Assembly: GCA_037379345.1 (NCBI GenBank)
Contig: CM074511.1
Coordinates: 26,542,862 to 26,606,861 of the forward strand
DNA: 64,000 bases
From: Perna viridis
Taxonomy: Eukaryota
Reading direction: 5' to 3'
Both the position numbers and the translations under genes were made by a program. The notes below the pieces were generated by a model. The model saw only the letters and a list, made by a program, of their open reading frames with translations, was not told the DNA's origin and ran no database searches. Of this stretch, positions 12,248 to 63,818 are shown piece by piece (positions within the stretch are counted from its first letter, which is position 1; every line of letters begins with the position of its first letter).

Positions 12248-12465
12248 AAAAGTATCGAAATTAAACACACTAAAATATAATGCATGGGAGTATTTTATAT
12301 ATTGGTGGATTATTATTGCTGAGTGATCGACAAACAATGTAGAAACAAATGCACTGTTTTCTTACCTAAAGTGACCCCCATTAACCTCATTTAAAAAATG
12401 TTATAAATGTATTTATTTATTTATTATTATTATTTTATTTTATCCAGAAAAACTGAAGAAATTAA

Positions 12466-13808: not shown

Positions 13809-14630
13809 TTTATGCCCACTGCAGACAAACTTTTGGGGTATATAGGAATCACCTTGTATGTCTGTCTGACCATTTTTCTTGTAAGTGCAACTCCTCCTAA
13901 ACCCCTCAAGAGGTTTTGATGAAATTTTAAAGGAAGGTTGGATATCATATGTAGATATGCATGAATATAGTTACTGTTGGAGGAGTCCAAAGGGAGATAA
14001 TCAAAATAGAGGGTTTTACATGGTAAAACCTTTGAAGTAGCACTCCACATAAGAATTATGCAAAGTGTGATTCATGGTTGGTAAGCCTACATATTTTTAT
14101 TTTTGATATTTTGTTTAAAATTCTCAAGTAAACAGAAAATATTATGTGACTTTTCATAGAACCCTTGTTCATAAGAGATAAAAATTACATAGAATGCACT
14201 GTAGAATTCAAAATTAAGGGAGGTATCTCTGTAAATGACAGTGAAACACAATAGTAACTGTTGGATTTTCAATATGGATTATTTCGTAAGAACAGACAGA
14301 TTGGAATGAATTATTATACATTTCATCATTTAGACCCATAAAACAAATTAATAACAAAAATAAAAATATGTAGCCTTTTTCAGGGTGTATCACATTTCAA
14401 AACTTGCATGATTCTTACAAAGACTTCTAGTTCAGAGCAACTCTTCCTTAACCGCTCAAGGGATTTTTATGAAATTTTATTAGAAGTTTGAGTATCACAT
14501 ATAGATTTGCAAGAAGGAATATAATGACTGTTGGATGACGCCAGAAGGAGATTATTGTTCTACATTTAAATCAATTAGAAGCAGTTAGGGGGGTATTTTC
14601 TTTGTGACCTTGCTCACAGTATTTCTAGTT
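13809..14630 (+). mobile_element. Helentron/HINE-like non-autonomous element with internal tandem units, interrupted by MITE copy 4
   Basis: Left end TTTATGCCC...GGGGTATATAGGAATCACC plus (TGTC)-like microsatellite; two related internal units (GCAACTC...ATGAAATTTT...TATCA..TATAGAT.TGCA) either side of the MITE; right end GGGGGTATT...GTGACCTTGCTCAC...CTAGTT. Confidence 0.55.
14037..14424 (-). mobile_element. TTAA-target MITE, copy 4 (inverted, one end eroded)
   Basis: Reverse complement of 12466-12859, more diverged. Confidence 0.8.
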
Positions 14631-15750: not shown

Positions 15751-18700
15751 TTAAAAAGACGAATGTGATTTGCCAGAACCCGGCTTCTTGGTCTCTATGA
15801 GTATCTGGCGAGGAGTTATCGATCCTTCCCGTGGTGATTCGGCGTTCGGATTTTCCTTCATATATTTCCCATTATGAAATAACGCAGGCGGAACTGGAAA
15901 GCATAAAAAGAGAACCATTTATTGAAATTCAAGTACATATAACACTTATATAAATAGTTCACGACAAAAATATCTCCGTTTTCAGACGACGCCAAAAAGG
16001 ATACCCTGTAGGTCAGGTTGTGTAAAAAAATTCTAAATAACTGGAAAAATTACGGAAAATATTCTTCATTGAGATATTGAAATGCCCCATTTGTTGTGGG
16101 GAACCAATGGAAGATGAAGGGTAATAACAAAATTACCTAACTGATAAAATCTAGTAAAAACTGGGAAGTTTGAAACCACCGCAATGTTCCTGACTTGGTA
16201 CAGGCATTTAAAAAATGACAGGTGGGTTAAACCACCATGGGACAATACTTGCTTAACCCTCCTCCAACCCCGATAGTTAACGGGATACATAACCATGATA
16301 ACAGGCGTACGTTTGCGACCAGATTAGAAATAGAAATTATAGAAGTTATAGTACTAGGAGACAAGTAAAGAAAAGCAAACTGTTCATTTCTCGTCGCAAA
16401 TCCCTATTTTACAATTATGTAAGACAACACTCTATCACCAAATAGCAGTTCTGCTAAAATTCTTAAAATAACAGTTAAATTCAGACTGTTTATCCCCTCG
16501 TCCCACAGGGGCACTTAAATTAAATCCAGATATTTAGTTGGATCCGTTGTTAAAATGGTTTTTTCTGTGTGGTATTTGTTTTTAGTTCTTTTGTGTTGTG
16601 AGGTTTGTTCATCGTCTATCGTCCCAAGCATTGTTTCATCCATGGATTACCTTCAAGTGGTGGATTCAGGGGGTCAGAACCCCCTTTTTGTACCTTCGAA
16701 TTATCCGCGAATATCGTTTTCATAAAATGAGTATACTAGTATACTAATCTGGTGATTTTTAAAATATAGATTAAGCACCTTCATCTGAAATGTTTTTATC
16801 CATCATTGAAACCATCACTCTCTGTTTATTTTTCTTGGGAGGAGTGTGATCTGCAAAAATTTGAAAGCGTTAATATATCGTTTACCTCAATCATACAAAT
16901 ATACATTATGTACTTGAAAATGAGCGACATGAAAAGAAAATTTACGAATTTTTTTACTTACATCGTTGCTTGAAAGATATGTTTTATCTAATTAAAAGAA
17001 GGTAGCCATTTTTTTTCTGCACAAGAGATAGAGGCGAATAGAGCTGTTAAAATCACAATATTAAACAAGAACGGACTTCTTTCCCGAGAAGAGATTAAAA
17101 TAAAAAAAAAACAACAGATTTTTTTCCTCATTAAGCGTTACGTATAACAGAGAAAAAAAAGTGCTCTTTACTAAACCGATCACTGGTGTGTAACTAACCT
17201 GATAGAGTCGTGTATTGTGTCGGAGGTGTGTATGGGATACTGCTAAATGCCGGCGTGCTTGTTCTCACCACAGGCTGCATCTATGACAGTAATCAAAATA
17301 TGGTGTTGGAGTTGTCAAATATTCGTATTTATAAAAATTAAACCGAAGGGAAAACACGTGAAAGTAAAATGAGAAACAAAATGAGAAATTCTAAGGTAAA
17401 AATGAACACAAAAATGCATGTATACAGAAACAGAACAAACTACAATCGTCGAACTGGAGACAACCAAAGAGAGAACAACGTCTGGCATTCGAAAACTACT
17501 CTAGATGAGGTTAGCAAGAGAGGAAAAGAACGTCTGTCACTGTTGAGCTATAGAGCTAGGGTAAATATAAATAAAGCTACGTCGACTTCACTAAAAATTA
17601 AGGATTGGTAGGCACCATCTACATTTCCGAAAACACAAATGCTTTGTCTTGTTAAACAAATTCTGTACATCCGTTACCCATTGACTCCTTTCGGCTCTTC
17701 CAATGCAAAGTGTTTTTAATTTTGTGTTGAATGACTTAAAGCACCTAACTGATCTTCCGCTAATGTGCATGCACGCAATATGGCTTCAAAGAACAATTTC
17801 TAAAAACCCGCAGAACTATTTGTGAAATGTCAGTACCCCTGTGATATCTCTCTACATGTTAATAGTAATAAATCCAGCATATGCTGAGTCTAGTACATGT
17901 TAAAAACTTATTCACATGTGTTGTGAAACTTTAAGTATTATTGTTCATGGGGTGCCAATTTTCGTGATTTCTGTGGGTAAGCCAGACCACGAAATTTGAT
18001 TCCCAACGAAAAGGAGATTTCCATTGAGGTGTATACTGAAAACCACGACTTCAAGAACCCACGTAGTTATGTTTCTTCCCTGTTCCACAAAAATTGGTTT
18101 CCACAAATTGATGTGTTTTCTCATTACCACCTTATAGCATTTGTAAACGACTACTGATCCTCTTTTTTTTAACACGTCACGAATTATAAATCACAATCTA
18201 AGACGCCAAAGTAATGACATATAGAAAATCTGTCTCCGAAGTTTTGGTTTTATTGTACATTAGAAGAACTTAACTACTGTTTTCATGCTGAAAGTCTTCG
18301 AAGGATGTCTTTGGATGATAATATTCAATAACGAAGAAAATACGACAGTAAAAACTATAATTCAATGGCAAATAAATAAAAGTAATGGTAAAACTTACGA
18401 AATCAAAGTACTGTATTTATAAGACATCAGAAAATACATGGAAACAATAGATTTATGACATTTTGTAGTTACAACGGTTGAAAAATACGTCATTCAATTT
18501 AGCTTGAAAAGAAATAACACATTGTAAAATATCGTTTAGAAAAAGAAGAAATATAGATATGTGAATTATAATTTGAAAGAAAATGAAAATAGGGAATTGA
18601 AATAGGATGACAAAATGATTATTGTTATGACTCATTGAACGATAAAGAGTCATAGACACAATTTATAGTTGGCCAAGTCTCTCTGCTTCCTCCACCTGTT

Positions 18701-21700
18701 CAGCCAGTTTAAGCTGCTCATTTGACCAAACGTATCCTCTAGTGGGTAAACGGCCTCCACTTGGTCTGCCTAACTATTACAATCAGAGAAAGCATCAAAA
18801 CTTGCTCGACCCAATTCAGTTTTGCATCTCCAATATCACCTTGACGTTTAACGTTTTTCATTTCGACCTCGTCTTGCTCCGACAGCTGTCCTCAGAGTTC
18901 GTCTTGCCCATTTTCAATTCCATTGCTTCTGTTTTATAAACTTTCTCTACCATGCTTAATCGGGAATCGAGTGTATCATTTTCCTCTTCCCCCTCTTCTT
19001 CATCGGCCCATTTGAAGACTAAGCTAAAATCAAGTTTCTCAGTTTCGGGTGCTTCAGCTCTTTCTGTCCAGTTCAGTCTTGCAATGGAGTCTGCAGGTGT
19101 CGAGCCTGAGCTGAGTTCACCTTCCTTATCTGCTTCATATCTTTTGGCCTTGTTGTCCTCTTTAGCGGAGTCGACCGACGTCAAATATATCCTGCGGTCA
19201 TCTGCTCCGGCTGTTTCCACTCTTTTAGCGCAGCTCAATCCTTTAGAGGGATCGGCTGATGTTAAGACCAAACTTGATTCATCAGCCTCGGTTGCTTAAA
19301 TTTCTATGGTACAATTGGTCTCCAGCGGCAGTGAAGAGTTCTATCGGAGATCCATCAGGGTTGCAGTAGGCAAGTTCATCGAAGCATACATTGGGATGGT
19401 TTTTCCTCTCTACAATGCCTTCTTTGATGGCTTCAATTTTACTTTTTGTTTTAGCAACCTCGAAATCTACAAACAAAACAAAAAATCGTCTTATATTAAA
19501 GAATAAGTAGTTTTTCACTCACACACAACGAAATCTTCGATATGAGAATGTGGGCGTATTATGCAGTGGACTCATAAGCAATCGTTGATATTGTAATTAG
19601 CATGAATTCTTGGCCTTTTGATTTTTATAGACCTAATAAACGGCAATCTATAAGAGTCAAAACTATTTTCAAAAACATGCTGAATAAATAAATATTCGTT
19701 TACTTCCCAAAATAAATAATGTTGCTTTTTTACAAAAGTACAATAGCATACAGAAGACATTGTCTACTATACATGACAAGTATGTTGTCGTACCAGCAGA
19801 CAAAGCCCAAAACGACATTGTTTTTGTCTGCAAAACGTTTTATGTCCAATGTTTATTATCAGAAGTAGACGTAGAAAATAATAGCAGTGATAGGACCTAC
19901 ACTGCTACCACTCTCTCCAAAGAAGAGATTGTGGAAAACCATAAATCTGTGCTATCGTCTTTTGGTCTCTCTACCAAGGACGATGATTGTGATTTACCGT
20001 CCATGTACTGGATTCTTAAACTTCACAAGAATCCATACAAACAACGTTTCATAGCTGGATCTTCAAAATGTACCACCAAACCTCTTTCAAAACTTTTAAC
20101 TTCTATACTCACAACTGTCAAAGAGGGTCTACAGTTCTACCACAACACTTGTTACTCCCGTAGTGGTATTAATTCAATGTGGATCCTGAAAAATTCGAAA
20201 GATCTTTTGGAGACAATCAGTTCAAGACTATTATCTGAATATAATAGCATTAAAACCTATGATTTTACAACACCGTATACTTCTATTCCCCATACTCAGT
20301 TAAAATCCCGACTTAAAAACATTATACATCGTTGTTTTTCCAAAAAAGATGGTACACCTAGATACAAATATATAGTTCTTGGTAGAGATTCCTCATACTT
20401 TGTAAGAAATAATTCCAAATCATCTTCCAAATATACAGAGGAAGATGTTTACAAAATGCTGGAATTTTTAATCGACAACATATTTGTCCAGTGTGGTGGA
20501 CGTGTTTTTCAACAAACGGTCGGCATTCCAATGGGAACAAATTGTGCTCCTTTACTTGCTGACCTATTCCTTCACTCTTATGAGGCTGACTTTATAGCTG
20601 ATCTGATCAGAACAAAAATGTCGTTTGGCTAGATCCTTCAATCTCAGTTTCCGCTATATAGATGACGTATTATCTTTAAACAATCCTAATTTCGGGGATT
20701 TGATACATCGCATCTACCCAAAAGAACTTGAGATAAAAGATACTACAGACACTGTAAAGTCAGCCTCATATCTTGACGTACACTTAGAAATCGATGGTAA
20801 AGGAAAACTATTGACCAAACTTTACGACAAACGTGATGACTTTTCATTCAGAATTGTTAACTTTCCTTTCATCTGTGGCAACATCCCTTCTTCTCCTGCG
20901 TATGGAGTGTTCATATCACAACTCATACGTTATGCCAGAGCTTGCCGAAACTACGCAGACTTTTTGTATCGCGCTAGAACTCTAACAAATAGGCTTCTGG
21001 AACAGGGTTATGTTGCTACAAGATTGAAGTTTTATGGTCGTCATCATGAACTCGTGGATCGCTATGGTGTATCCATCAGCACCATGAAAACTGATGTATT
21101 CAACGGGTCATAGTTTTCCTTTCCTCGTTTGTCTACCCCGGACTTGACTTTTTATGAGCAACTCGGCGGGTGTTTCTAGAAAAGAAGAGGACGCTTACCC
21201 TACCAGTGCACCTGGTCCATGCTCCCAGTTTTTAGTGGAGTCCGAGTTGCTCAATTACTTTTGTTACTTTGTATGTATGATTTTAGTTAGTTTATGTTCT
21301 TTGTTGTGAATGTCTGTTTTCCATGTCTTGTCTTTGTCCCTGGATTACATTAAGCAAATTTTTGGTCGTTCCCTCCGCGGGACTCGAACTCGTACCGCTG
21401 TGACATCTATGGCAACACCGCCTGCACTAAGTCCAGCGCCCTAGACCACTCGGCCAGCTAGGCTATATAAAAATATAGCTTTCGCTGGCCGGGTGATTCC
21501 TCCTCGGTGTTGCCATAGATGTCACAGCGGTACGAGTTTGAGTCCCGCGGAGGGAACGACCAAAAATTTGCTTCGCAAATTTGACAGTTCTAACATCGTT
21601 GGGAATTTTTCAGACCCTTCTATAAGTTTACGTTATCTTCCCTGTATCAATTTGATCCGATGGAGCAGAGTAGTGAATAGAGTCGTCACATTCTGAGACG

Positions 21701-24700
21701 TTGTATAGTATTGATTTGTTGTGACATGCATCATTAATTTGATCCTCTATCCTACATAATAACACCTAGATGAACTGTCCCGTACTACCATACATCGTGT
21801 ACTAAGTTACAGCCCTAGATTAATCCTACGAGGAGGAATCACCCAGCCAGCGAAAGCTATATTTTTATATAGCCTAGCTGGCCGAGTGGTCTAAGCGATG
21901 GACTTAGTGCAGGCGGTGTTGCCATAGATGTCACAGCGGTACGAGTTCGAGTCCCGCGGAGGGAACGACCAAAAATTTGCTTTGCAAATTTGACAGTTCT
22001 AACATCGTTGGGAATTTCTCATACCCCCCCTATATATATATATATTACATGAAGTTTACATATAATGTCCATTGATTGAGAAATAATCACTAAAGTAATT
22101 TTTGTGTGCCATTGGCAAAAATTGCTCATGAGATTAACGTGCATTTCTCTTAATGTTATAGCTGTTTAATTATTCTGCAGATATGTAAGAACGCTGATTT
22201 TTTTAAAATCGCCAGTCTATATAGTATTTTCCACGGCTTATCTCAAAATGTGAATTTCTATCAATTTTAAGCATGACTATATGAAAATGATTCGTTTTTG
22301 AAGGTAAAATTAAGGGAGAGCTAACATGACACATGAAAATGGGAATTCAAGAACAACAAATTATGAAACGAAAACAATACAGATTCCTTTAAAAAAGATC
22401 ATACGGACAAAAACAAATTGATTAAAAAGAAGACATATCATGATCAATTAAAATATAGAACCAACTAACTTGATGAAATTCCTATACGCCTGCAAGTTCT
22501 ATACGAAGTATTTCAAGTATTCTGCTCTCTACTAGAAACGCTGCTTGTTGTGGTGGAAGATGTTATATAAACTTACGACGTCGTCATTGGAGTCCAGCGA
22601 CGTCACGATAGACAGACGCAAAGATGACGTTATTAGTGCATATTCATAGCATGTCGGAACTAATCGGAAAACAACTCCGAGTCGGCAAATTTCGTCGAAT
22701 TCAGATTCACAAATATATTTTATTTAATTATTTTTTTTTATTTATTGTTTAGACGTGAAAAAAAGAACACATTCAAATGACATTAAATATATATGGTTTA
22801 CACTTGTACGCTCGGTCTCGCAATTGTAGAATAAATGCACAAAAATCACTTAAAATACCAAGGATTATCGTGAACGAAATGGAAATGGTGCCGTAATACG
22901 AACCGGAAGAGGGTGTACTAGATCAAACACAGCGGAGGGCCAGAGAGGCTGTGTTGATTTAGTGAAGGACCTCTCAAGAAAAAGTAAAGTAAAAGTATAT
23001 ATTAGGCTCATCTAGAGCATTTTGAACATTTCGTTGTACTGGAAATATTCATTAAGAAAAACAAAAAAAAAAAACAAAAAAAAAACCAAAAAAACCCCAA
23101 GAAAACAAAAAAAAACAGCATAAGAACAATTATTAGGGACATATATCATATAAAATATGTGAGATAAAGAATAAGAGATGTCAGATACAAGATATAAGAT
23201 ATCCTATATGATTTTGTTAAGAAGATATATTACATAGTTGATAAAACATCTCATAAAGTATATATACGGCACGCCGTATATTCATATTTATCCCAATTCG
23301 TAGATATGTTCTATAATTTAGTAGATATATATTGCTTTTTAATAAGATATCTTATAGAATACACAAGATTTCTCATATAATAAATAGCTTATAAGATAAA
23401 ATATAAATAAAATTGTAAAAAATATCTCATAAAGCATATAATATATCATATACTTTATGATATTTATAAACTTTATAAGACATCTTATGAACATTATTAG
23501 ACATCTTATATACTTTATGAAATATCTTATATATTTCATAAGATATCTGATCAAATGTAATATATATATATATAAAATATCTGAGAAAAAAGAAGATATC
23601 TACAAGATTATATAAGATATCTACGAATTGGAATAAAAATAGATACGGCGTGAAGAAGGTAAGTACCAAATTTGATTATCATAATCTTTTTCGTTTATAT
23701 GATTTTACGCTTTGCCTTTGATGGGCAAATTATATCTAACTTTATTGACAATGTACTGTTGTTAATATATCGCTGCCTAGATCAACAGTAATATGTAAGA
23801 CTTCCCATAACACATGATGTAAGTCAAAGTTCAAACAATCACACCCGAACTGCATATGTAACTTTGGACGGAAAGAGTTTGAGCCAAACATATCTTGACA
23901 GAGGATATACATGTGTAGGACGTCACTGGCGCTCCGTCCATAATATTTTGTATACAGAAAAATAAAACTATAGCAAAATATTGTGGTGACTTCCACATAC
24001 ACAACACCTAGAGATTGTGACGGCCGTATATGTTTTTTGAGTGATGTCAAGATTCTATTTGATTTTGACCATTTAATGATGTATCAAGTAAGAAAAGAAT
24101 GTTTCATTTTTTATGTTTCATCGGCATGCAATTTTAAGCGTTGACCGTAACATAATCTCTTCTTTCAAATATGCAATCGGTCAACGCTTTTACACGTCGA
24201 TGAAACATAAAAAATGAAGCACTGTATTCTTTATAATTACATTGACACTTCCTCTAATTTCATTTCTTTTTTATTTTAAATATACATAGAAAACGGGCTG
24301 TACACGTGTGGTCCATATAGTCGTGGGCGTGGCCTATATATGTAGTGTTTTACTGACTCACGAAACATCACATGTAAAGGCGATTATCCAATGAGATGAC
24401 GTATTTTAACGATATTTACAGTAAATGTGAACACATTTTATTGATAAATATAATCATTTCTTACCCAAATTCCTTATTATATATATACATATATCTATAT
24501 TTATCTTCCGGCTTACCTTCGTTGTTTTAGTTCCATACACCGTAGATAGCTGGACGTTATCTGAAAATTTTCACAATAAATAGTTTAATTTGCATGCACT
24601 TGGGTGATGAAAGCTTTTTTTTTTCAAATTAACTGTTTAGAAATCAAATTTGTATAATGAATTGATAATATTTGCTATTGGTTGGAAAAGGGCTGACAAT

Positions 24701-27700
24701 TGTTGACTGTACTTTGCACAAATCATTCAATAAAAGTTATCCCCCAACCCCGATTGAATTTAAGCTTATACATAACGATAACTATGATCAGGCAACAGTG
24801 TTTTGTTTTATGTTTTTCACAATGGGTTTGAGTTTCATTTGTGAACGTAGTTGATGTTGCACGTTTCTAGTTATTATTGGTATATTTCAGCAAAAGATGC
24901 CTACCCTGTCGATGCACCTGGTTGTATGTTATTTGGTTTAATTTATGTTCTTTGTTTTGTGTTTTTAATTATCTTTTCTAGTTGCTCGGATTATTTTGTT
25001 GTTGATTACCATTCGAATCATGGATTCATTGATTTTCCTTTCGTTATTTAAAAAAAAACCAATGTTTTAAATTGATAGAGCGTTAGAATACCTTAAAACT
25101 GTGTAAGCAAGTTCAAATTTTCATTTATTTGTCCTTTCATGTCGTCAACACACAACTTGACGATTGCACCAGTGATTTAAAAAAGAAGAAAACATTAGTC
25201 CCTTTCTATCAATGCAACCAAGAATGACTTACTCTTGATACGATTTTCTTCTTTTCCCTCACTGAAACTAAAAAGAATGAACAAAGTTGATAAATGCAAC
25301 AAAATGGAGGTAATCAACATAGATACACTATGTGGTCTTTAATGAAAATGAATTATGATAAAAAAAAAATCGATCTTTGTCAGGTTGGACTTCTTCGGAC
25401 AAATATTTTTTTTAATCGATTCAATGATTGGCGGCCTCAATTTTTTAAGCATGCGCAAGCATTGTGATTTTTACAGTTTGCTTTACGGATTTTGCTTTAG
25501 GATTAACACTCACATTTACAAATACATTTGTAAAAGTAAATAAACGGTCACAGTTACATCATAGAATAATTCCGATAGGATAACAGATACACTTGTAAAT
25601 TGATATTAAGCAAAAATTATTGATGTTGAATTTCCACTAAGGATGTACCAAAGATGATAACTTCATGGTACATCCTGTTTTTTTGCGTCTATTGACACAT
25701 GGTTTTACCATTGTCACACAAGGCTACGTTTTTTATCATAAAAACTAAGGCTATCAATCATTGTAAGGTTTTTAAGTAAAATATACTGCATTATTTTAGG
25801 ATGAATATGCCCCTAAACAGTTCTTGATATTTGAGTATTATTATGTGACGTCTGTTGGTCCTTATTTTCAGTTTTGTATTCGGTTCGCAACATTTGTGCA
25901 TGTGGATCGTGTCTTTTTCATGTGTTCACGTATATGCCATTTTTTTTATTTTGGCGTATTTGAATAACCCCCAAATGCTGACGTTTCGTTATTTTTTTGC
26001 CAATATTTTATTTAAAGCTTTTTGAAAAGGGCTTAAGGAGGTAGACCTAGGGGAGGGACATAACTCGTAAAATCAGCGATATGCTTGTATCACATTCAAT
26101 TTCACCAAAGCCTTTCAAGCTTTCCCTTGACACAGAATGAAATCAGTCCAAGTTACTTTTTATGTTTACATTAGATGATTGTAAAATGCAAACGTTCCAC
26201 TGATTTACATTGTAAGAGTTGCGTTATTTTTTTTTCAGTATCTAATACCTGTACTCCTTATCAGTGTTCCGCGTACAATAGAAATACAGTACTAGTATTA
26301 TAGCAAGTAGTACTATCGCACAGGCAATGGTTGAAATAACAGCAATACCGACAGTTGTTTGAGCCCAGTTTTGGGTCGAAGTAATACTTGTGTCGACATA
26401 AGGTTCTACCAAACTAACAGGAAACGATGTAAATGCCGCTGATGAAAGTGCAGTACTCGGAGAACCATCGGATTCGCTGAGAACTTTGAGTATTTCTGAT
26501 TGCGTCATGAATGTTTTTTCATTGTCAATACCGTCTATTTTATCAGCATGGAGACTCTCAACCACGTAAATAACGGACTCTGACCTTAATGAGAAAGCAT
26601 TGAAACATTAACAAAAAACAATGGTTGATATTTTGTACTCCTGTTTGACGAATTTTTGACGAAATGATATTTTTCTATATCTCACTTAGCATTAAACAAT
26701 TTATAATGTAGTTTCTCTTGTTCAACATTCCGTCTAAAATGTCATCGAACAAAACTGATATTGTTACAAGAAAACTAGAGAACGAATATGCCTCCGCATG
26801 AATAAAGGGTCATAGCTCATTAACAAAAAAAAATTGTCTCCAGAAACGAACCAATTTTAGGAGTTTAAGAGTAATCAAGGGAACCAAGATTCGAGCTGAA
26901 ATCAAGACAGGGAAAATAAACACACACAACATAAAACATGAAGTGGACGCCTGGACAAGATGCATCAGTTGGGTAAGCGTCCTCCGCTTTTCTAGAAACT
27001 CCCGCCGAGTTGCTCATACATACAAAAAATACCAGTTTTATACATGTATATTGTAATTTCGATATTCTGTACACGTGTTTCAAGGAGTAACCTCTCATCG
27101 CCAGCAGTAAAATCAAATATGTAGGAAGATCATAATCAAAATATTAGTTTTTCTCATAGCCAAATTTATCGAAAGAGGAAGCCAAATCGATCAAAACTAT
27201 GACACTGTGAGAAAAATAGGTTTTTACGGTGCAAATGGATACACTATAAGATCTACGACGACCATAAAACTTCTGTAGTGGCGACTTCAATCTTGTAGCA
27301 ACATAACTTTGTTCCAGAAGCTTAATTGTAAGAAGTCTAGCAGTGTACAAAAAGTCCGCGCAGTTATGACAAGCGCTAGCATGACGTTTGAGTTGTGATA
27401 TAAAAACTCTATACGCAGGTGCTAAAGGGAGGTTGCTGAGCGGTTCATGAATTACTCGTGTATATTATCTTGACACAAAAAGAGGGAAGGCTGGACGAAC
27501 GAACGGACAGACATTAGGAACAATATATACCCTACTCGTTGAACGAGGGTAAAAGTTAATCAAATAGTACTTACTGTGCTGTTGCTAAAAGTCGTCTACG
27601 CCTTGCTTGATTTAGATTGTTTATCTTCCAAATTCCAACACGGTTTGATGGAAATAAAGTTTGTAGAGAAGTTCTCAGCTGATTTCTATAATTACAAGAA

Positions 27701-33700: not shown

Positions 33701-36700
33701 AGGTTATAGCGATAATCAAAAGAATGTAATCCAGGGACGACGACAAGACATGGAAAACAGACATATACAAAAAAGAACATAAATTAACTAAAATCATACA
33801 TACTGTAACAAAAGAAAATGAGCAACTCGGACTCCACTAAAAACTGGGAGCATGGACCAGGTGCACCGGTAGGGTAAGCGTCCTCTGCTATTCTAGAAAC
33901 ACCCGCCGAGTTGCTAATAAAAAGTCAAGTCCGGGTAGACAAACGAGGAAAGGAAAACTATGACCCGTTGAATAAATCAGTTGAAATGAGGAAAATAAGA
34001 AAAAGAGCATGTCATTCTCGAATTTTGGTAGAAATTGACCAACTGGAACTTTGGGAAGCCATCTTAAACCGGTGTGACATACACACAAGGAATGAGGCCA
34101 CATAAAACATTTGAAAACTAACATTGTTTTCCAGGGTTTAAATATATTATATGCAATAGCGAAACTTATAGTTTTGAACTTGTATAATTAATTAAATATG
34201 AAAAATGTATTTAAGGAATATTACAATTTAATTTTTAAGGGATGCAAGTACAAATTTTGAAAATGAATTTGTACCCAAAACACTTTTTTGTCTGGGATTA
34301 TTTGATTCGCGGACTGTCGACCAATTCATAATAACTACTAATGGGGTTTTTAGTGTCATTGACTACTCTTACCAGTCTCGCACGGACGGTATTTTTCATT
34401 CATAATAATGACGCCACAGTACCAATATACACAAATTAACCTGGTTTGTTCAAAGAGAGACAATTAATCAGAAAGCTTGTTATAAATCAAATTAAATAAT
34501 TTACCTGTTAATACATAAGTTATTTGATTATTTACACCAGCATCGTCCGAATCGACAGCAGATATCGGCGGTGTCATGGTAACAGTACCAATAGCATGGT
34601 CTTCAGATAATGCAACCGTATAAACATCCTGTAAAACCAAAGAAATTAAATACACAGAAAAAAATTATAAATGGTCAAAAATCAAAATTGTTTCCATTAT
34701 TTTTACTATTTTCGACGTAACAAATTTTAAATTAAGATTGCCTTGATCGAGTTTCCGGTCAATTGCTGAATGTACATTTTCCCGAAATAATTTTCCTTTT
34801 CAAAATAGGTCACATGATTAAAATAGGCGACTTTCACATTCGCCATTCACGTCGAATCTGGTGGAAACTGATATACAGTTTTACACTAAACCAGGAAAGA
34901 ATGTAGAATTTGAAGACCACTAAACAGTAATAGTTATGTGGAAATACGTCTCCGATCACAAAATGTCTGAATTTTTTCTGTAATATTTATATCATTTAAA
35001 AAATTATAGTAATCGAATCCAGTTTCTGTTCCCCATGTTTCCCACTGCAATGTCTTCCTTCCGATCTTGCGTCTGTTGACCACAGTTGACCTCGATATGA
35101 CTGTAGAATTTTACCGGAACAGAAGTGAACGTGAAAATCGTCTATCATTTACCTGTGTAAACGCTGGCGCGACATCATTTATGTCCGTCACAGTAATGGT
35201 CAAGGTTCCAGTAGTCTTTGATGCTGATAAATTTGACGAATAAGCAGAAATTGTAAGAGCATGCGTGGTAGCGGCCTCTCTGTCAATACCAGGTGATGAA
35301 ACGTACACCACTCCTGATTCATGTGAAAAAAATGAAGATATCTATGCAATACAATTATCCACGAATTCTCCAATGAATGGATTACAAAATTCAACTATAT
35401 AGTCAAGTAACTTTTTAGGTACTTCACAACGGTTTGCATTTTTTTGTAGGATAATTTGGTACAGTACCGATCTTTTTTTTCAATTTTATTTTGCAAAGGA
35501 AAATAAGTATTCGAAGTAGTACATTATTTCTGAACGAAAAACAATGTGGATCAATGGGTAAATACTCTATTTACAATAGAGAAAAGAGAAGATCTATGAA
35601 CCATGTTTTGAATACGTGTAAATTTAACAAATAATTTTCTTTTGGACAGACAACTTAAGTAGCTGTCTTTGTAAGAATCACGCAAAATCTGAAAAATGTG
35701 ATACATCCCCAAAAAGGATACATATTTTTATTTTTGTAATTAAGTTGTTTTATGGGTCTATATTATGAAATGTGTAATTATTCATTCAAATTTACCTGCT
35801 CTTAAGAGATACTCAACATTAAAAATGCAATAGCTTCTATTGTATTTGAGTGTCATTTACAGAGTTATCTCCCTTAATTTTGAATTCTACAGTGCATTCT
35901 ATACAATTTTTATCTCCTATGAGCACGGGTTATACGAAAAACCAAATGTTAATTTCTGTTTACTGAAGCATTTAAAACAAAATATCAAAAATAAAAATAA
36001 AAATATGTAGGCTTTCCAACCATGTATCACATTTTGCATGATTCTTAGCTGGAATGCTACTTAGGTTATTCAATTGAAATCCACAGGGTAAAGTACAGAA
36101 AATTTCACCTGAATTGGCATCAATTCCAAAAAGATTGGTAGCAGTATCAATGCCATATGTTATTTTTGAATGTGTTGATCCGGCTTTGTCGGCGTCTGTT
36201 GCAGTAATTGTAACGACTGGAGTTGCCGCCGCACTGTTTTCTGCGACAGCTTACAAAAAATAAACACAAATTTAAAGCGGAATAAGAGCATTATTGTTTT
36301 GTTATTGAAGTTTTCTTCAACTACCAGTATACTTTATATGTATAAAACATGCAACTAACATTTTTTTTTAACATAAGCTGTCGACATTTTATTAACTTAA
36401 TAAATATAGTGAAACCCGTTTTAATCAAACACCTATGGGACCATGGAATTTGATTGGTTCAGACAGATGTTCGTTTTACTTAGAATCAAAGTACATTTAA
36501 ATTGATGGTTTTCAAAAGTATTTCGGTATTTGGCTTTCGGATTATTCAGGGTTAAGTTTCGACAGTTTTAATTCGGTTATTGATTTCGTTATTGGATTTG
36601 TTTTCGAATTTAAATGAAATTTATATTTTTTACAAACTGCAAATGTTCTTATTTGATATCTGGAAGTTTAAAATAGAATTGCTTTTATTTTGAAATTGCC

Positions 36701-39700: not shown

Positions 39701-42700
39701 TTATTACGCGTGTTTAAACTATAATGCATAAAAATGTTATAAATAGGATTTAAGTTTACTGTGTATGATGAGGTTGGCAAGGGTGCGTCATAATCAAATA
39801 ATTTGGCCAATCGTATTTCTCCATTTACTCCATTGGCGCCTGTTTTAGTGACACTGAAGTAGCCATCGCCATTTCCAGAAACAATGCTGTATGTCACCTG
39901 ACCATTTGCACCTGAGTCGGCATCTGTACACGTTAAAGTTATTATCAGATCACCGACAGCTGCCGACTCCCTGACCTCCTTGGCATATGCTGAAGAAGTG
40001 CAGACCTATAAAACGTAAAATTCAATACCTTATTGAAAAAAACCATATCTTTTAAGAGTAGAAATTTAAATTTAAGTTATCTTTAGGATTCAGATTTTAT
40101 GATATTCAAATTCTGTACTATATGATAACACAAAGGTAAGACATTGATTGGTCGATGTTGTGTGTTTAATAGTCATATAGATATAATTTTTTAACTCGAC
40201 TATTACGTTACACTTGAAATTAAATATTTGACTCAAATTATGTATTAATTAAATTGTAGAGTAAAACATGAAGCTTGCCAAGTTTTAGCTGCATCATATT
40301 TTAAGGTTTTAATGGCTGTATTCAATCGTTAGAAAAATGAAAATACCTCTACTTACTGGTTTATTATCATTCTCATCAGAGACTGTAATGACTAAATTGG
40401 TTTGTGCAGTTTTTGCAGGAGTAAAACCAGTATCTACAATCTTTAGAGCAATAGTATGTGTTTTGGCAGCTTCATAGTCCAGACTTTCTTTTGCTGTTAT
40501 TTCACATGTTACCGGATCTACGGTTATTTTATTGGAATCTGGTGGTCCATCTTTTAAGTTTAATTGAAAGAAAAGAAATGCCATATTTTTAACTATAGGA
40601 GTGTTAATTTAAAGTCGTTTTCGGCAATTTTTTTCACCAACGAAAATCGTTAAGTAAATTAGTTTTAGCATTGTTGCAATATCGCCCAACCGAGATATTT
40701 TTGCACATTTATTAGATTTACACAAGAATTATACATTATGTAAGTCATTTGTATGTAATACCTACAAACACAGTAAAAGCTTTGTTTCGTTCATCAACTT
40801 TAGTGTTAAAACATATGTACAACTGGAAGGGTGATACTTATTTGGATATCTGTGAAAATGTTTCGAATAAAACAAAATGGAAATACAAAGTTTACTGAAA
40901 ATAATCTAATATTCATTACAAAACAAAATAAGACATTCGAAACATTTGAATTTACGAAAAAATACAAATTTCTATATTTAAATCTTTATCACTAGTTTTA
41001 TGAACTATGATGTAGATAAAACTTTGTAAAAATTTAGGAGCATTTGCAAATAGTATAATTTCAAATGCAATTATTATTTTGTACCTCTAGATTTAGTTTA
41101 CCCACCAACTTTTAAACACATGAAGCTTTGAAAATTAAAATTATCGTCTATCACATCCATGTCGAAAGGAGTCGGTGTATATACGAACGACCCGAATGCT
41201 CTATTTTCAGGCAATGTTGTTGTATAAGGGGTCCCAAGGAATGAAGGGTCAATGTCATTAACTGGGTTTACTTTTAAATTGACAACAACATTAGCTGCAG
41301 CTGACAGAGGTGGAGTACCTCCATCTGTAACTTGTACTGTTATCTAAAAAATTGAAATAATTGGTGTAGTTATAGAGTATAAAAATATGTAAGCATATTT
41401 TATTAATTATGGGTTTCAAAACAGAGATAAGCCAACATATGATAGTATAAATCTGACAACAGAATAATTGTAGATAAGTTGCAGAAGTTGTCGTGCTAAA
41501 TACATCCCCACTCATACAGAAAATTGCTATCGGATATCACTTAAAATCGCTTACAATGTATGTTCCATCTATATACAGCAAAACATTGAATTTGAAATCA
41601 GTCCATATTTTGTAAGCCGAGATTTTCGTGACGAAAATTTTCTCTATCATTCCATATATATTGAAAAACGTCAAAAGTCCCACAAAACAGAAAGTGGAAA
41701 TCGGACAGCATCCAAAATTATTTACAATATGTCCTCATGTATATAAAGCCATACGTCAATTTAATCAATCCATGGGGAGCCAAGATAACTGCGACGAAAT
41801 GCGGACGGCCGGGAGGACTATGTGACTCCACCCACAAGTGGAGTGGGGTTTAAATGTTTGATTTGAAAAGGCTATAAACTTTAACGCAGAATCAAGGCAC
41901 AATGAGCAAGACATAACAGTAGCCATTCTAGCCAGTTATCGAAGAGTAATCAAGAGAACCACAATTCTAGCGGAAATCAAAAGAATGTAATCCAGGGACA
42001 AAGCCCAGACATGGAAAACAGATATACACAACAAAGAAAATAAAATAACCAAAATAATACATACTAAGTAACAAAAGTAAATGAGCAACTCGGACTCCAC
42101 TAAAAACTGGGAGCATGGACCAAGTGCACCGGTAGGGTAAGCGTCCTTAAGTTATCTTTTTGCTTTGAAGCTTTGAACGAAAAGAGATTTATTCTTTCTT
42201 CCCATTTTCATCAAAATACAGAATACTAATTATAATCAAAAAAATAATTTCTTTATAGACAACGTATCTTCCCGGCTTAGGGTGCATTATGGGGATTATA
42301 ACAGCACATACCTGTAAACTGTGAGGAGTAGTAAAGTCGTCATAGTCTATTGCCACAACCAAACTTAAAGCTCCCGCTCCATTGATGCTAAAGTGACCAA
42401 GATCATTTCCCGAAATAATACTGAAGGTTAGAGTGCCATCCGGTGGGGCATCACCATCCGTGCAGGGTAATGTCATTAAAACTGTTGTTGCAGTTGTCGA
42501 CTCATCGAATGCATGTGAAACAGCGTATGAAGTGCACGTTGGATTATTGTTTTGGCCTGCAAAAAAGTCACAAATAAAAATGAAACTTTTTGAGCTAGAA
42601 TATATCAGCATATGCAGTAAAAATCACATACTATAAAATTCAACCTTTTGAAATGTATTTCCCAATTTTTTCTAGCAAACCAATGAAAACTTATTGATTT

Positions 42701-44546: not shown

Positions 44547-45718
44547 GTCCAAGACTATTACTTGAATATCATAGCATTAAAAACTATGATTTTTCAACAC
44601 TGTATACTTCTATTTCCCATACTCAGTTAAAATCCCGACTTAAGAACATTATACATCGTTGTTTTTCCAAACAAGATGGTACACCTAGACACAAATATAG
44701 AGTTCTTGGTAGAGATTCCTCATACTTTGTAAGAAATAATTCCAAATCATCTTCCAAATATACAGAGGAAGATGTTTACAAAATGCTGGAATTTTTAATC
44801 GACAACATATTTGTCCAGTGTGGTGGACGTGTTTTTCAACAAACGGTCGGCACTCCAATGGGAACAAATTGTGCTCCTTTACTTGCTGACCTATTCCTTT
44901 ACTCTTATGGTGCTGACTTTATAGCTGATTTGATCCGAAAGAAAGAATATCGTTTGGCTAGATCCTTCAATATCAGTTTCCCTATATAAATGATGTATTA
45001 TCTTTAAACAATCCTAATTTCGGGGATTTGATATATCGCATCTACCCCAAAGAACTTGAGATAAATGATACTACAGACACTGTTAGGTCAGCCTCATATC
45101 TTGACCTACACTTAGAAATCGATGGTAGAAGAATACTATTGACCAAACTTTACGACAAACGTGATGACTTTCCATTCAGAATGGTCAACTTTCCTTTCAT
45201 CTGTGGCAACATCCCTTCAGCACCTGCGTATGGAGTGTTTATATCACAACTCATACGTTATGCCAGAGCTTGCCGAAACTACGCAGACTTTTTGTATCGC
45301 GCTAGAACTCTAACAAATAGGCTTCTGGAACAGCGTTATGTTGCTACAAGATTGAAGTCATCACTACAGAAGTTTTATGGTCGTCGTCATGGATCGTTAG
45401 GGTGTATCCATCTGCACCATGAAAACTGATTTATACAACGGTTCATAGTTTTCCTTTCTCGTTTGTCTACCCCGGACTTGACATTTATGAGCAACTCGGC
45501 GGGTGTTTCTAGAAAGGCAAAGGACGCTAACCCTATCGGTGCACCTGGTCCATGCTCCCAGTTTTAGTGGAGCCCGAGTTGCTCATTTGCTTTTGTTACT
45601 TTGTATTTATGGTTTTGGTTACTTTATGTTCTTTGTTGTGTATGTCTGTTTTCCATGTTTGGTCTTTGCATTCTTTTGATTACCGCTATAACCTTGTTTC
45701 CCTTGATTACTCTTCCAA
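44547..45718 (+). mobile_element. 5'-truncated Penelope-like retroelement, copy 2 (between the two cadherin genes)
   Basis: Same RT motifs with a frameshift around the YIDD site (44980-44995); complete 3' UTR. Confidence 0.9.
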
Positions 45719-52100: not shown

Positions 52101-55100
52101 AGAGGAAGATGTTTACAAAATGCTGGAATTTTTAATCGACAACATATTTGTCCAGTGTGGTGGACGTGTTTTTCAACAAACAGTCGGCACTCCAATGGGA
52201 ACAAAGTGTGCTCCTTTACTTGCTGACCTATTTCTTCACTCTTATGAGGCTGACTTTATAGCTGGTTTGATTAGAAAGAAAGAATATCGTTTGACTAGAT
52301 CCTTCAATCTCAGTTTCCGCTATATAGATGACGTACTATCTTTAAACAATCCTAATTTCGGGGCTTTGATACATCGCATCTACCCCAAAGAACTTGAGAT
52401 AAAGGATACTACAGACACTGTGAAGTCAGCCTCATATCTTGACCTACACTTAGAAATCGATGGTAAAGGAAAATTATTGACCAAACTTTACGACAAACGT
52501 GATGACTTTTCATTCAAAATTGTCAACTTTTCTTTCATCTGTGGCAACATCTCTTCAGCTCCTGCGTATGGAGTGTTTATATCACAACTCATACGTTATG
52601 CCAGAGCTTGCCGAAACTACGCAGACTTTTTGTATCGCGCTAGAACTCTAACAAATAGGCTTCTGGAACAGCGTTATGTTGCTACAAGATTGAAGTCATC
52701 ACTACAGAAGTTTTATGGTCGTCATCATGAACTCGTGGATCGTTATGATGTATCCATCAGCATCATGAAAACTGATTTATTCAACGGGTCATAGTTTACC
52801 TTTCCTCGTTTGTCTACCCCGGACTTGACTTTTTATGAGCAACTCGGCGGGTGTTTCTAGAAAAGCAGAGGACGCTAACCCTACCGGTGCACCTGGTCCA
52901 TGCTCCCAGTTTTTAGTGGAGTCCGAGTTGCTCATTTACTTTTGTTACTTTGTATGTATGATTTTAGTTACTTTATGTTCTTTGTTGTGTGTGTCTGTTT
53001 TCCATGTCTGGTCTTTGTCCCTGGATTATATTCTTTTGATTACCGCTATAACCTTGGTTCCCTTGATTACACTTTCAAGTATTGTCTGTGAACGGGTGGA
53101 ATATAGGGAGTGCAATATAGGTCTAGGAGTGTGATATAGGGTATGCGATATAGGTCTAGAGGTGTGATATAGGGTATGTGATTTAGATCTAGAGGTGAGA
53201 TATAAGTAATGCGAAACAGGTCCACAGTTGTGATATAGGGTATGCGATATAGGTTTCAAACAAATACTTATCACGCATATAAAACAGGTATATTTTAATC
53301 TAATTGTTCTTCCCGGATTCGTAAGATTTAAAAATTTTCCGAGAACACTGACTACAGTTTGAATGTCCGTCAGATATTGAATGCTGTGAATAAAACTGGT
53401 GTGATGGTGGGAAAATTTCCCTCTTTTTTATAATTCATTACAATATTGACACATACTACATTTTCTTTCTAATTTGTTTATTCTAGGTATGTTCAGCACA
53501 AATATATAATGTTAAGATGATGGAAACAGAACTACCTGGCACAAATTTAATACACATGGATTGTAAAGATTTAGAAACTCCTCACCTTACGTACAAATTA
53601 CATAGAGGTATGAGCATTTATTCTTTTATTATAACTTTGAGGGCGCTGTAGTGAAATATTTCTATTTGATCATGCTATTCATAACAAAAATACTTTGCAA
53701 TATAGGAGTGTTTTCTATAAAGTTTGCCAGTTATTTTAATGATTTAGTTATAAATGTTAAGTTTACAATACGCATGGTTAAATTCTACATTACAGCAAAA
53801 ATATCTTGCATCGTACACATTTTGAAATATTTTCACATTTTCACAAACATATTAAAAAAAAACTGAAAACTGATGAAACTGTTATTATGTTTAACATTAT
53901 TCATGTACCTTCATTTCTAGTACCTTTTACTTAAAAAAATTCCTATTATTTCCAATTTGAATATTTGGAGTATCGATATTTAAACTTAAACTTCTTAAAA
54001 ATCTTATACTTTTACGCACTTTTCAGGTGATACAACAAAATTCCATGTCGAGTCTCACGGCGAAATCAAACTAAAGTCACAAATAGATACCGACACCGAA
54101 GATAATTTCTGGACGATCCAGATTGAGGTCCGCGATCATGGTGTTCCACGTCTAGATACATTCGTTGATGTCAATATTTTCGTTGAAGACGTTGATGACA
54201 ACAAGCCTTATTGGCATCCTGCCAACAATGGAACTTACACAGTCTGTTTGTATATATTTACAACAGTTTAATAAGTACAGATAAAAACAAAGACTTCTTT
54301 TTATATTTAACAAAATTTTTTAAAGTATACTTGGAAGAAATGTTAAGTACGAAGTATGAATATAAAACAAAAACAAAATAAATCACTCAAAAAAAATAAC
54401 AAAAACAAAGAAAATAAAACCCAAATTAGTAGTTATGCATAAATCAACTTGCCTAATTGATAGCTTTGCTTTTTCGAAATAACAAGACTAAGCCTGAAAA
54501 AATTTCTACTGTGTACAACTGAGAATGGTTGTTGTAATTTGCAATATTGCATTAACTGCATTCTGTATAATAACAGCAATTCAAGAGAACTCTGCAGTTG
54601 GCACATTTATAACAGCACTTACTGCAGTCGATGAAGATAAAGCAGGCAGCGACCATTCTATTGTGAAATATGCTATAGAAGATGTGACAACTCGGTTTAC
54701 CATAGAAAAACTTTCGGGTAAAATGCTTTATTCTTTCCCATGATACACTGTCATTTTACTTATACGCGATTTCGACACAAGCTCCGAAACAGCGTCTGAC
54801 GTTCAGAACTCCTCTAAACGCTGCCGCCAGCCCTCTCAGAAAATGCAAACATCTTGCAAAGTCGGGAAAAAGTGAATAGTTTTACGCGAATTATCCGATT
54901 GTCAAACAACGTATGATTTGAATTACGCCCGAGAATTTCGAAAGGCCTCTCTGTAGCGGTTAGTAAGAGAGGAAACGAACGTCTGGCGCTGCGTGGAGCT
55001 TGAAAGAGTTACTCTTGTTGTAAGTCGCGATATTTTGTAGACACTTTAAATACCTCTAAAATAACAACGAAGTTAAGCTACTGTGATTCTGCTTAAACAA

Positions 55101-61100: not shown

Positions 61101-63818
61101 TGTGGGCTATTGCTCAGGTTTCAAGGAATGCTACATGGAATGGTGCAGCTGGAATAATCAGAGTCGATTCATTTATACCTAATGAACACATGGTTGTTAT
61201 TGAGCATGATGTATCAGCTGGAATATTACAGTCCCAAAAGTAAGAATAACTTTTTTTAAATGTATATATTAGAGTTCATAGAATTGAGTTATTTGTTTAT
61301 ACGTTGTACCAGTGTCGGGTCCTATTCTTCAATGAACATTTTAGCTAACCCACTGGAAAGACTTATTGTCATATTTGTGTGGAAAAAAAAAGATTTAAGA
61401 GCTGTGGCAACTTTTACGCGTCAAATGGCGTCACAAAGTAACGTTTGTTTGTTTTATTTGCAATTTAACGAAATTGGAACGTTTGTAGGTAGTTTTTTCG
61501 GCCTGGGTGTATTGGTCACATGCTCCACAAACTTATTAGCTTGTCAAACGTTGTCTAGATACAACAGTCTTTCATGGTTGATATATTAGAGTTGTCGAAT
61601 GGGAAATCAAGGAACCATGATACGACCGGTAATTAAATAAAAAGAACACACACACACACACACACACAACAAATAACATGAAATCTCCTGAAAAAACAAA
61701 TGTGATGAAATCAAGTGTTTATCGCTAATTTGGAAGAATAAACTTTTTTTTTGCTTCACGTTGAACAATGGTTTCCATGTTCTGCATAGGTGAACAACAA
61801 AAAAGGTATTGTAAGCAAGATGTGCAAGCATGTATGTGTATATCAAATACCCCTTTAACGAACATTTGCGATAAACCGTAAGCTTACAAAATTAACGAAA
61901 GCCATTTATGAACAGAATGATTTTAATCCTAGTGTTGTTAACACTCTAGAAATTTTCAGTCGTTAAAAATGGTGGTCAGTAAAATAATATTTGAAAAAGG
62001 ATTTTCATTAAAATTGATTACACATATTTTCAGAAATAAACTAAAATTTGCCTTGCAAGACTTATTCCCGTCAGAAAACAGAGTTGGGGTATGGAAAATT
62101 ATAGAAGATGACACAGTCATTGGAAGGCGCAAACTTCTAGCCACTGGGTAACTGAACTACCATATGCAATGATAAATAAATTTTGTTTAACTACAATTTA
62201 TATTTTAATTTGATTTCATTAAAATGAAATGAAAAAAGCAGTCAAAAATGGAACTTTCTAGGTATTTTAGAAGATATGGCATGTGTAAAATGGTTCTGAT
62301 CTAACGTGAGGATTACATAATCAGAAACTCTTATATATTATTATAATACACTCTTCATTTATGTAGAGTAGTATTTATTGCAAACAAAATATTCTAACTG
62401 ATGATCTTTAACAGACGCTTTATATTTTTTCAGGTCAAGAGCACTTGTATACGTTGTAAAAGATCGTTCTACGGATACGTTGAAAGGAATAGAAAAAGAT
62501 AAATCATTCCTTGCCAAAGAAGAGATCTTAAAAGTCTTGCAACAGTCAAAAGATGGCACACCAGCGCATCCTATGAATGGGAAAAAGTTTGATACTTTCC
62601 CTGTGACGTCTGTAAAACCATATTACGTTCCGGAAACTCCGGCCCCAGCTTGGCATGAAACTGATGTAGGGATAGCAGTATTGTTGTCAATTTTTCTTAG
62701 TTTGATTTTGCTGGCTATTATTTTGGGCTTGTATTTTTACTGTACACGACATGGGCCGGATAGGTATGTTAAGTCAGTAGGATGGCAAATGATAAAACAG
62801 GAGTTTAACTTCTATTATATCTGTAATTTCGTAACCGATACTGAAATGTTGTAATTTATTGCTGTAGTTGATCTGTTGATTATCATTTTTTTAAAGATTT
62901 CAAACAGGTGCATTCACGACATGTGGTATGGTAACTTAGGCATTCTGGTATTACAAGTCGAGAGGAAATGCAGAAATCAAAAGAATGTAATCCAGGGACA
63001 AAGACCATACTTAGAAAACAGACAAACACAACAAAGAAAAAAGTAACTAAAATAATACATATAAAGTAACAAAAGTAAAAGAGCAACTCGGACTCCACTA
63101 AAAATTGGGAGCCTGGACCAGGTGCACCGGTAGGGTAAGAGTCCTAAATATAAGCAGATGCATCAATTTATGCCTGCAACATATTTTAAGCAGTGTTTTT
63201 TTTATTATACCGACCTAGTATTTATACTAGTAATGAAATACATTCCCATTTCAGATCTCGAGAATCATCAAAGATTACTGTAAAATGTAAGTTCCTTTTT
63301 GACACTCACACTTTCACACATGATCAACACAGTAGTTCCGCTAAATATTATATAATTTTAAATATTTTTATTCATTATATTTATCTATACATTATTTCAA
63401 CTTTACCTGGTTACTAATGGCAGCTGCTAATATTCCTGTTACGCTATTTCAAGTTCCAGAGAACGATGACATCTATCCTGAGGATCAATATGATGTCATA
63501 GCCCCAAACTACCCTTATGTCCGACGCTCGCCAGCTTTCAAGCCATGGGATGCATCATGCAACTCAATCAATGGAAGTGATCCAGACTACCTCAGAAAGC
63601 AAGAAGGATGGGATAACTTGCTAGAAACTGGTGGTTATGGAATTTACAGTTTCAGAAAACCTACAGCCCCACCTCCCAGGCCTGAAGAGATAATTGATGT
63701 CAAGAAACACAAAATAAGACCATGGTTTTTCAAGTTCAAAGGGAATAAATCGGACTTAGATCATCCAGATAGATCACTGACATCTTATAAAACTAAAGTG
63801 GAAAGATTTGATGGCTAA
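49120..63818 (+). CDS. Giant non-classical cadherin-related protein B (~18 EC repeats, membrane-proximal domain, TM, tail), ~2215 aa, 15 coding exons
   Basis: Phase-consistent exons: 49120(or 49159)-49213 (signal peptide MVILVYGFLFVSGYFSLG), 49924-50180, 50592-50820, 51258-51448, 53487-53607, 54027-54245, 54577-54717, 55260-55420, 55956-56070, 56428-56673, 57207-61239, 62034-62147, 62434-62763 (TM), 63255-63286, 63454-63818; sum 6648 nt is divisible by 3. Confidence 0.88.
51942..53078 (+). mobile_element. 5'-truncated Penelope-like retroelement, copy 3 (intact RT C-terminal half)
   Basis: 265-aa ORF with GTPMGTKCAP and RYIDD ending ...KTDLFNGS*; complete 3' UTR. Confidence 0.9.
53100..53257. 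repeat. ~33-bp minisatellite (TGTGATATAGGGTATGCGATATAGGTCTAGAGG), ~4-5 copies
   Basis: Directly visible, starting ~20 bp after the end of retroelement copy 3. Confidence 0.75.
56784..57021 (-). mobile_element. Second locus of the tRNA-headed element, embedded in (TA)n
   Basis: Reverse complement of the 21872-onward head plus the 21507-21700 body; (TA)5 on one side and (TA)7 on the other. Confidence 0.85.
57207..61239 (+). CDS. Cadherin gene B giant exon (4033 bp, ~13 EC repeats)
   Basis: 1304-aa ORF collinear with the gene A giant exon; acceptor 57205-57206, donor 61240-61241. Confidence 0.95.
62970..63145 (-). mobile_element. Short 3'-UTR-only copy of the Penelope-like element
   Basis: Matches the 3' UTR starting at AGGACTCTTACCC. 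Confidence 0.8.

Follow-up and report, generated by a model that had tools for sequence, protein, structure and literature searches.

A pseudoknotted RNA with two palindromes in the 3′ UTR of Naiad Penelope-like retroelements, a candidate dimer-forming ribozyme

Small self-cleaving ribozymes cut at a specific site and produce a 2′,3′-cyclic phosphate and a 5′-OH. Only about ten classes of natural self-cleaving ribozymes are known, and pistol, hatchet and twister-sister were found as structured RNAs in places where other ribozyme classes are common (PMC10085705). In Penelope-like retroelements (PLEs), helix III of the hammerhead ribozymes is short and palindromic, and cleavage takes place in dimers (PMC4209133; PMC6765202). 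In the one PLE that has been studied in vitro, the hammerhead cuts ~85-90 nt upstream of the first reverse transcriptase (RT) start and requires protein to do so; insertion does not depend on it, and RNA-seq reveals no read ends from its cleavage (PMC11167929).

Naiads are a PLE clade characterized by an N-terminal GIY-YIG, CxC and DKA motifs, a tail and tandems (Craig et al. 2021, PMC8557442). Canonical hammerheads are reported as absent from them and SECIS elements as present in four families, and the missing hammerheads had been left as an open point (PMC8557442). Here we describe an RNA element, termed motif A, from a window of 64,000 nucleotides of Perna viridis DNA (the whole stretch analysed), where it recurs in the 3′ UTR of such a retroelement.

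Motif A copies and their host element

The original prediction placed motif A at 21155, 33819 (minus strand), 45487 and 52835. All four copies are present, with exact starts at 21155, 33819 (minus strand), 45488 and 52836, and they are 92-97% alike. BLAST yields seven matches in the window, comprising these four full copies, two truncated copies and one diverged copy, and a covariance model recovers the same seven with E values below 0.01 (Table 1). The anchor copy spans 99 nt and has its first base 41 nt past the stop of a broken RT frame. As proposed, the motif forms a GC-rich island (53% GC) in a U-rich UTR (30% GC and 55% T downstream), and CTGANGA, the signature of a hammerhead core, occurs on neither strand of the two UTR copies checked.

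Based on its N-terminal GIY-YIG, DKA, CxC, tail and tandems, the host element is a Naiad PLE by sequence. A longer copy of the window family (L383) encodes a zinc finger and a GIY-YIG upstream of the RT, then CxC (reading CSC) and GPKY. The GIY-YIG match has an E value of 0.0018, which is under the Pfam cut-off, but the domain lies upstream of the RT and the ORF stops after the RT. DKA is present both in the window ORF and at a second locus (L376). The window family likewise exhibits 5′ truncation, 38-nt go-back joints (in the 30-40-bp tail class) and tandems. Table 1 gives the position of a head-to-tail array of ~16 units; the five units compared in it are 99.8-99.9% alike, and the ORF is broken in the unit read.

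The motif core has 11,054 exact matches in the P. viridis genome (control, 0), and the 3′ 24-mer has 16,389. The motif has diverged by 4.5% among 115 genomic copies, compared to 3.6-5.0% for its flanks. The host family of the window copies is thus one large, young Naiad family within which the motif decays neutrally. Because motif and flanks decay equally fast, the likeness among window copies reflects recent descent and says nothing about function, and the evidence for the structure of motif A comes from other families rather than from the four window copies. The fold energy of the motif alone is modest (z -2.07; 6 of 200 shuffles are as good).

Table 1. Positions of motif A, its parts and neighbouring features (window coordinates unless a locus is named)
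Feature	Position	Strand	Remarks
Motif A, anchor copy	21155..21253	+	decayed at 21185 and 21205
P0, 5′ strand	21155..21166	+	pairs with 21242-21253; sequence varies among families
P1, 5′ strand CGGGTG	21167..21172	+	partner CACCYG 21209-21214; alternative partner 21196-21200
P2, 10-nt loop-less palindrome	21173..21182	+	covaries; predicted intermolecular duplex
P3, 3-bp stem with 7-nt loop	21183..21195	+	invariant AG and 5-nt pseudoknot strand (21188-21192)
Junction strand YACYC	21196..21200	+	conserved; unpaired in preferred fold
P4, 4-8-nt loop-less palindrome	21201..21208	+	broken in anchor copy; predicted intermolecular duplex
Pseudoknot, 3′ strand	21215..21219	+	complementary to P3 loop; directly after P1
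P5 hairpin (CTCC/GGAG)	21220..21241	+	length and sequence variable
Motif A copy	33819..33917	-	core intact
Motif A copy	45488..45585	+	several substitutions
Motif A copy	52836..52934	+	
Motif A copy, 5′-truncated	42082..42147	-	begins at motif position 34
Motif A copy, 5′-truncated	63081..63145	-	begins at motif position 34
Motif A copy, diverged (83%)	26941..27016	-	3′ part absent
Naiad RT	19753..21113	+	5′-truncated, frameshifted; DKA, YIDD; without C-terminal endonuclease; stop 41 nt before motif
U-rich spacer and 38-nt tail	52935..53078	+	reaches 3′ end of element
Junction stem-loop	L410 1050-1130	-	directly after element 3′ end; outer stems differ yet pair in published consensi
Sister Naiad 3′ UTR element	16189-16290	-	also L417-L424
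Head-to-tail array, ~16 Naiad units	G000:C3:46027362-46079052 (L409-L416)		3.41-kb period
Fold-back insertion	21352-21573		ends anchor copy; related pieces 21829-22026, 56770-57035
Long single-exon cadherin-repeat ORFs (two)	28296-32354 (-), 57206-61243 (+)		facing apart
BTB-Kelch ORF	7979-9784	+	
Another ~400-bp repeat family, five copies	108-508, 3374-3776, 12459-12863, 14031-14435, 35652-36063		

Fold, covariation and palindromes

Read 5′ to 3′, motif A consists of P0, CGGGTG, the palindrome P2, P3 (3 bp, with a loop of AG plus N5), YACYC, the palindrome P4, CACCYG, N5′, the hairpin P5 and P0′. The stems drawn in the original prediction are largely right, in that the closing stem, CGGGTG/CACCTG, the 10-nt palindrome and the CTCC/GGAG hairpin are all present; missing from that model were the pseudoknot, the second palindrome and the dimer signal. 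A hairpin given as AAGC-AGAGGAC-GCTT also exists, although its arm in the anchor copy reads AAGA (21185) and three pairs, not four, are found across families. P4 is broken at 21205 in the same copy, and these two substitutions identify the anchor copy as decayed.

The search pattern does not require N5 and N5′ to pair, and yet four to five pseudoknot pairs are present in 105 of the 118 listed AT-rich matches, compared to 0 of 17 GC-rich chance matches. Compensatory changes across families, whose absence would have spoken against the original prediction, are evident: the covariation score among the aligned representatives is 0.552 versus 0.161 when shuffled, with slid controls near ~0.1, and both partners vary in each of the five pseudoknot pairs and the four P2 pairs (24-26 aligned representatives). 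Because these representatives were hand-picked after the pairing had been seen, the test was repeated on cluster medoids defined only by the flanks of the 118 listed matches. The pseudoknot then accounts for 115 of 125 pairs in 25 clusters (20,000 shuffles: mean 73, sd 4, maximum 93) and, at a stricter clustering threshold, for 139 of 155 pairs in 31 clusters (shuffled maximum 111). The shuffles take no account of relatedness, but 19 distinct 5-mers occur in the loops.

In 15 of 23 representatives, no unpaired base separates P0, P1, the pseudoknot and P5 where they join, as against 1 of 17 chance matches. Moreover, the non-Watson–Crick pairs of the pseudoknot comprise six G-U and no A-C, which indicates that the sense strand is the folding strand. 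Covariation is seen in P0, P2, P4, P5 and the pseudoknot, and the core is invariant. This invariance is partly forced by the search pattern in the alignment; the core is also present in 10 published consensi retrieved by a 7-mer alone. P1 shows no covariation because its sequence is nearly invariant, and an alternative helix, GGGTG/YACYC, pairs as well as P1 in the alignment, such that covariation cannot separate the two. We prefer P1 for its length, for the gap-free junction it creates and because one published consensus breaks the alternative. In the preferred fold, YACYC is a candidate catalytic or contact strand. A compact, covarying fold with invariant unpaired bases is a feature of small ribozymes, and motif A has it.

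Both P2 and P4 are palindromes without a loop. Their centres are Watson–Crick self-complementary in 22 of 23 P2 stems and in 15 of 22 P4 stems, where about 1 in 4 is expected for each, and the occurrence of all four self-complementary central dinucleotides means that double changes were needed. A tight hairpin would leave its two central letters free, and yet these letters are self-complementary, which suggests that two RNA copies pair with each other. For the P2 and P4 segments alone, the median hairpin energy is 0.0 kcal/mol, compared to self-duplex energies of -13.2 (P2) and -10.3 (P4) kcal/mol. Exceptions exist, in that two families have a P2 of odd length and some P4 centres are unpaired. 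From these models, we consider it probable that two motif A RNAs form a dimer.

Spread among Naiads, position in the UTR and a sister element

The architecture of motif A follows the ORF in at least 12 of the 54 Naiad consensi of Craig et al. 2021 (PMC8557442), a lower bound that comes from string searches and reading by eye, with consensi named from neighbouring headers. Two are from Clytia, five from bivalves (CGi, Sglo, Olur, Tgra, Pmar), four from hemichordates and one from a fish (Cmel), so that four phyla are represented (Cnidaria, Mollusca, Hemichordata and Chordata). Although 12 of its consensi contain motif A, the accessible parts of that report do not mention it. The P. viridis genome itself holds a second motif A family with changed stems and may contain more; patterns with changed letters retrieved mostly decayed copies of the first family there, plus this second one.

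Metagenome contigs gave at least 122 matches to a fixed-letter pattern, and prokaryote genomes gave 13. Seventeen of the 135 listed matches (12 prokaryote records, and 5 contigs with GC ≥55%) were set aside as chance. Among the remaining 118 is one contig of 407 nt from a prokaryote assembly, which matches a bivalve consensus. Among the matches listed, an RT ORF ends 41-350 nt upstream of motif A in nine loci, two of which encode RTs 30-37% identical to the rest. The upstream DNA examined at L128, L146, L154, L175, L178, L196, L226, L233, L238 and L242 contains no Naiad RT; motif A families of this kind may represent elements of other hosts that are truncated or non-autonomous. Scanning viral contigs with patterns returned 0, 1 (chance, L091) and 0 loci, and searching viral contigs and phages for RTs yielded no useful match. 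Judging from these comparisons, motif A is a real and deeply conserved pseudoknotted RNA of a Naiad subgroup.

Copies end sharply at motif position +235 to +245, and thus motif A ends ~140 nt before the 3′ end of the element. In the tandem array of full-length units, a second stem-loop adjoins this end (z -2.81), and its core is also present at the 5′ start of 10 or more published consensi (PMC8557442). A TATA-like box is located ~125 nt after the element junction (L410). We infer that this junction stem-loop is a better candidate than motif A for RT recognition or initiation. The original prediction of a cis-acting RNA in a PLE 3′ UTR for binding, initiation or processing therefore holds as regards a conserved cis-acting RNA without a hammerhead core, whereas the proposed role in initiation is weakened by the distance to the element 3′ end and by the different conserved stem-loop adjoining that end. 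By the geometry of the PLE studied in vitro (PMC11167929), motif A would sit where a hammerhead would, and not at the RT start site.

A different UTR element occupies the motif A slot in the consensi Mgal, Bpla, Mphi, Scon and Mmer (PMC8557442), the first three of which nevertheless have the junction stem-loop in common. This combination suggests that the slot carries a portable, self-contained module, with RT recognition left to the junction stem-loop. The sister element has 371 matches in the P. viridis genome, obtained with a second pattern after the first had given 0 matches in that genome and in the loci, and it follows a Naiad-like RT in 4 of 9 loci. Its best Rfam match is twister-P1 (13.2 bits and E 3.3, against a gathering threshold of 67.2), extending over UAA, GCC and the CCAAG loop; the larger scan of eight loci gave no twister match for it. 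The element resembles a circularly permuted twister whose stems are short and palindromic, the Rfam match being weak, and the literature searched contains no description of it. The Naiad UTR slot seems to take different modules, at least one of which is ribozyme-like. Replacement of hammerheads by motif A is not strict, since Naiad-1_Chem has both motif A and an 'HHR_core' note. Naiad-1_Chem and Naiad-2_Chem also share a conserved GC-rich element ~150 nt upstream of motif A.

Possible functions and relation to known RNAs

By analogy with the systems above, we propose with a probability of about one half that motif A is a dimer-forming self-cleaving ribozyme of an undescribed class, which does in Naiads the job of hammerheads. 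Besides the covariation, the depth of conservation and the dimer signal described above, this reading is supported by the lack of canonical hammerheads in Naiads, by the twister-like element in the sister slot and by the presence of head-to-tail full-length units. P0, P1, the pseudoknot and P5 would stack in a junction without unpaired bases, while P2 and P4 would form duplexes of 10 bp and 4-8 bp with a second copy, either in a tandem transcript or in trans. These duplexes would keep the two conserved strands, AG and YACYC, within an active site that cuts multimeric or read-through transcripts, perhaps only with the help of the element's protein. We are slightly more tentative about the fuller proposal of a new ribozyme class that dimerizes via two palindromes, has spread with Naiads over four or more animal phyla, reaches tens of thousands of copies in individual genomes and is interchangeable with twister-like and hammerhead motifs.

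Several observations count against a ribozyme. The invariant P1 helix also fits recognition by a protein, and the twister likeness of the sister element is far under the Rfam cut-off. The hatchet dimer, formed through a palindrome, is dispensable, an objection that is weakened because the hatchet palindrome itself is not conserved (PMC6561176). In two RNA-seq runs from one study, both strands of the motif are read to depths above 1,000, and no site was found where many molecules start or stop (29-nt and 8-nt bins). This null result is weak, given that reads fall on both strands and probably derive mostly from passive copies. The 5′ ends of 89 copies selected by their 3′ end spread from -560 to +180 with no peak in the motif. 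A cut site at motif position 34, suggested by two window copies that start there, was rejected on the lack of a pile-up in these 89 further copies. However, the PLE hammerhead studied in vitro leaves no read ends (PMC11167929), and negative mapping is therefore expected even for a ribozyme. The idea of an unrecognised ribozyme, also part of the original prediction, gains indirect support, and no cleavage signal from RNA-seq or 5′-end mapping.

It is less probable that motif A is a non-catalytic element for dimerization and RT binding (packaging), whereby templates pair via P2/P4 and the Naiad protein binds P1/YACYC, which would favour the template jumps and partial tandems typical of PLEs. The same structural and dimer data fit this explanation, as do the invariant sequence of the P1 helix and the flat read-end profiles, and a dimer is predicted for a PLE protein (PMC11167929). 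Ty1 and retroviruses provide known cases of RNA dimers driven by palindromes. However, the motif is kept over RTs that are 30-37% identical and yet a different element takes its place in the closer relatives Mgal, Bpla and Mphi, and it stops well short of the element 3′ end.

We regard as improbable a purely regulatory 3′ UTR element that acts on stability, 3′-end formation, translation or nuclease progress and has no role in cleavage or RT binding. Its location past the stop codon would suit such an element, as would a pseudoknot with a multiway junction. The sense-to-antisense depth ratio also dips smoothly to 0.57-0.7 over the motif, whereas the ORF has 1.1-2.2 and the tail 0.8-0.9. Structure or decay may account for this, although the dip is confounded by a few expressed host loci, such that cleavage, structure and the mix of source loci are not separable. 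Regulation leaves the self-complementary centres of two palindromes unexplained, and the 5′-end pile-up that a nuclease block would give at the 5′ edge of the motif is not seen.

More doubtful still is a far-diverged twister. From the closing stem through the core stem and three hairpins to the pseudoknot between loop and 3′ strand, the helix order resembles twister P1-P2-P3-P4-P5-T1 (PMC6154101), and the sister Naiads have a twister-like element in the same slot. However, compared to the Rfam consensus, there is no UAA after the closing stem, no CCAAG loop (the loop is AG plus five variable letters), no second pseudoknot to give T1 plus T2 and, because P0 and P1 abut, no internal loop with a U-A site between them; nor does twister match motif A at E values up to 5-10. 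A DNA-level feature or chance, with palindromes acting in DNA or descent alone, would agree with neutral decay within the family but is largely refuted by covariation across families, the G-U polarity of the sense strand, the freely changing palindromes and the failure of chance matches to form the pairings.

Known RNA families fare no better as identities for motif A, in which no known catalytic core is present. The window has 0 Rfam matches at gathering thresholds, and none falls on the motif at E up to 5 (eight loci) or 10 (one copy). HDV-like ribozymes are built on two nested pseudoknots, in which P2 forms 5′ of P3 and P1.1 has 2 bp. The P3 loop is the only long-range partner of the 3′ strand in motif A, which with the absence of an Rfam match sets it apart from that class. 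Hammerhead identity was rejected for want of a CUGANGA/GAAA core and of an Rfam match, and pistol, hatchet and twister-sister because their topology differs (PMC6154101) and no Rfam match appears at E up to 5-10. Antisense folding and resemblances to antisense splice sites, tRNA-like structures, SECIS and SRP-Alu were dropped on G-U polarity, size and the perfect closing stem. We found no description of motif A in the published, freely readable literature searched.

The work provides a 50-nt core, a fold supported by covariation and many natural variants. If motif A cuts, it is a new ribozyme class, and PLEs would require dimer-gated RNA cleavage irrespective of the fold that provides it. Otherwise, it would be the first RNA-dimer signal for the telomerase-related RTs of PLEs and a lead on the origin of tandem insertions.

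Among described RNAs, motif A is comparable to the minimal type-I hammerheads of PLEs (Cervera and de la Pena 2014, PMC4209133; PMC6765202) in being located within the terminal repeat region, ahead of the RT start. Those hammerheads have a short palindromic stem that requires a second copy, whereas motif A has two palindromes, a likeness that is one of analogy only (PMC4209133; PMC6765202). It differs from them in its core, its 5-bp pseudoknot and its two four-way junctions, and in that cleavage is here only predicted. With twister (RF03160; PMC6154101), it has in common the helix order with a pseudoknot from a loop to the 3′ strand, but it has none of the conserved twister letters, one pseudoknot rather than two and no internal loop at a cleavage site. 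Like the dimerization palindromes of Ty1 and retroviruses, its self-complementary stretches could unite two genomic RNAs; unlike those, they lie in the 3′ UTR of a non-LTR-like element, where a compact core with a pseudoknot contains both loop-less palindromes. Structured RNAs that form dimers in the terminal repeat of a PLE are a known kind; the fold of motif A matches no family.
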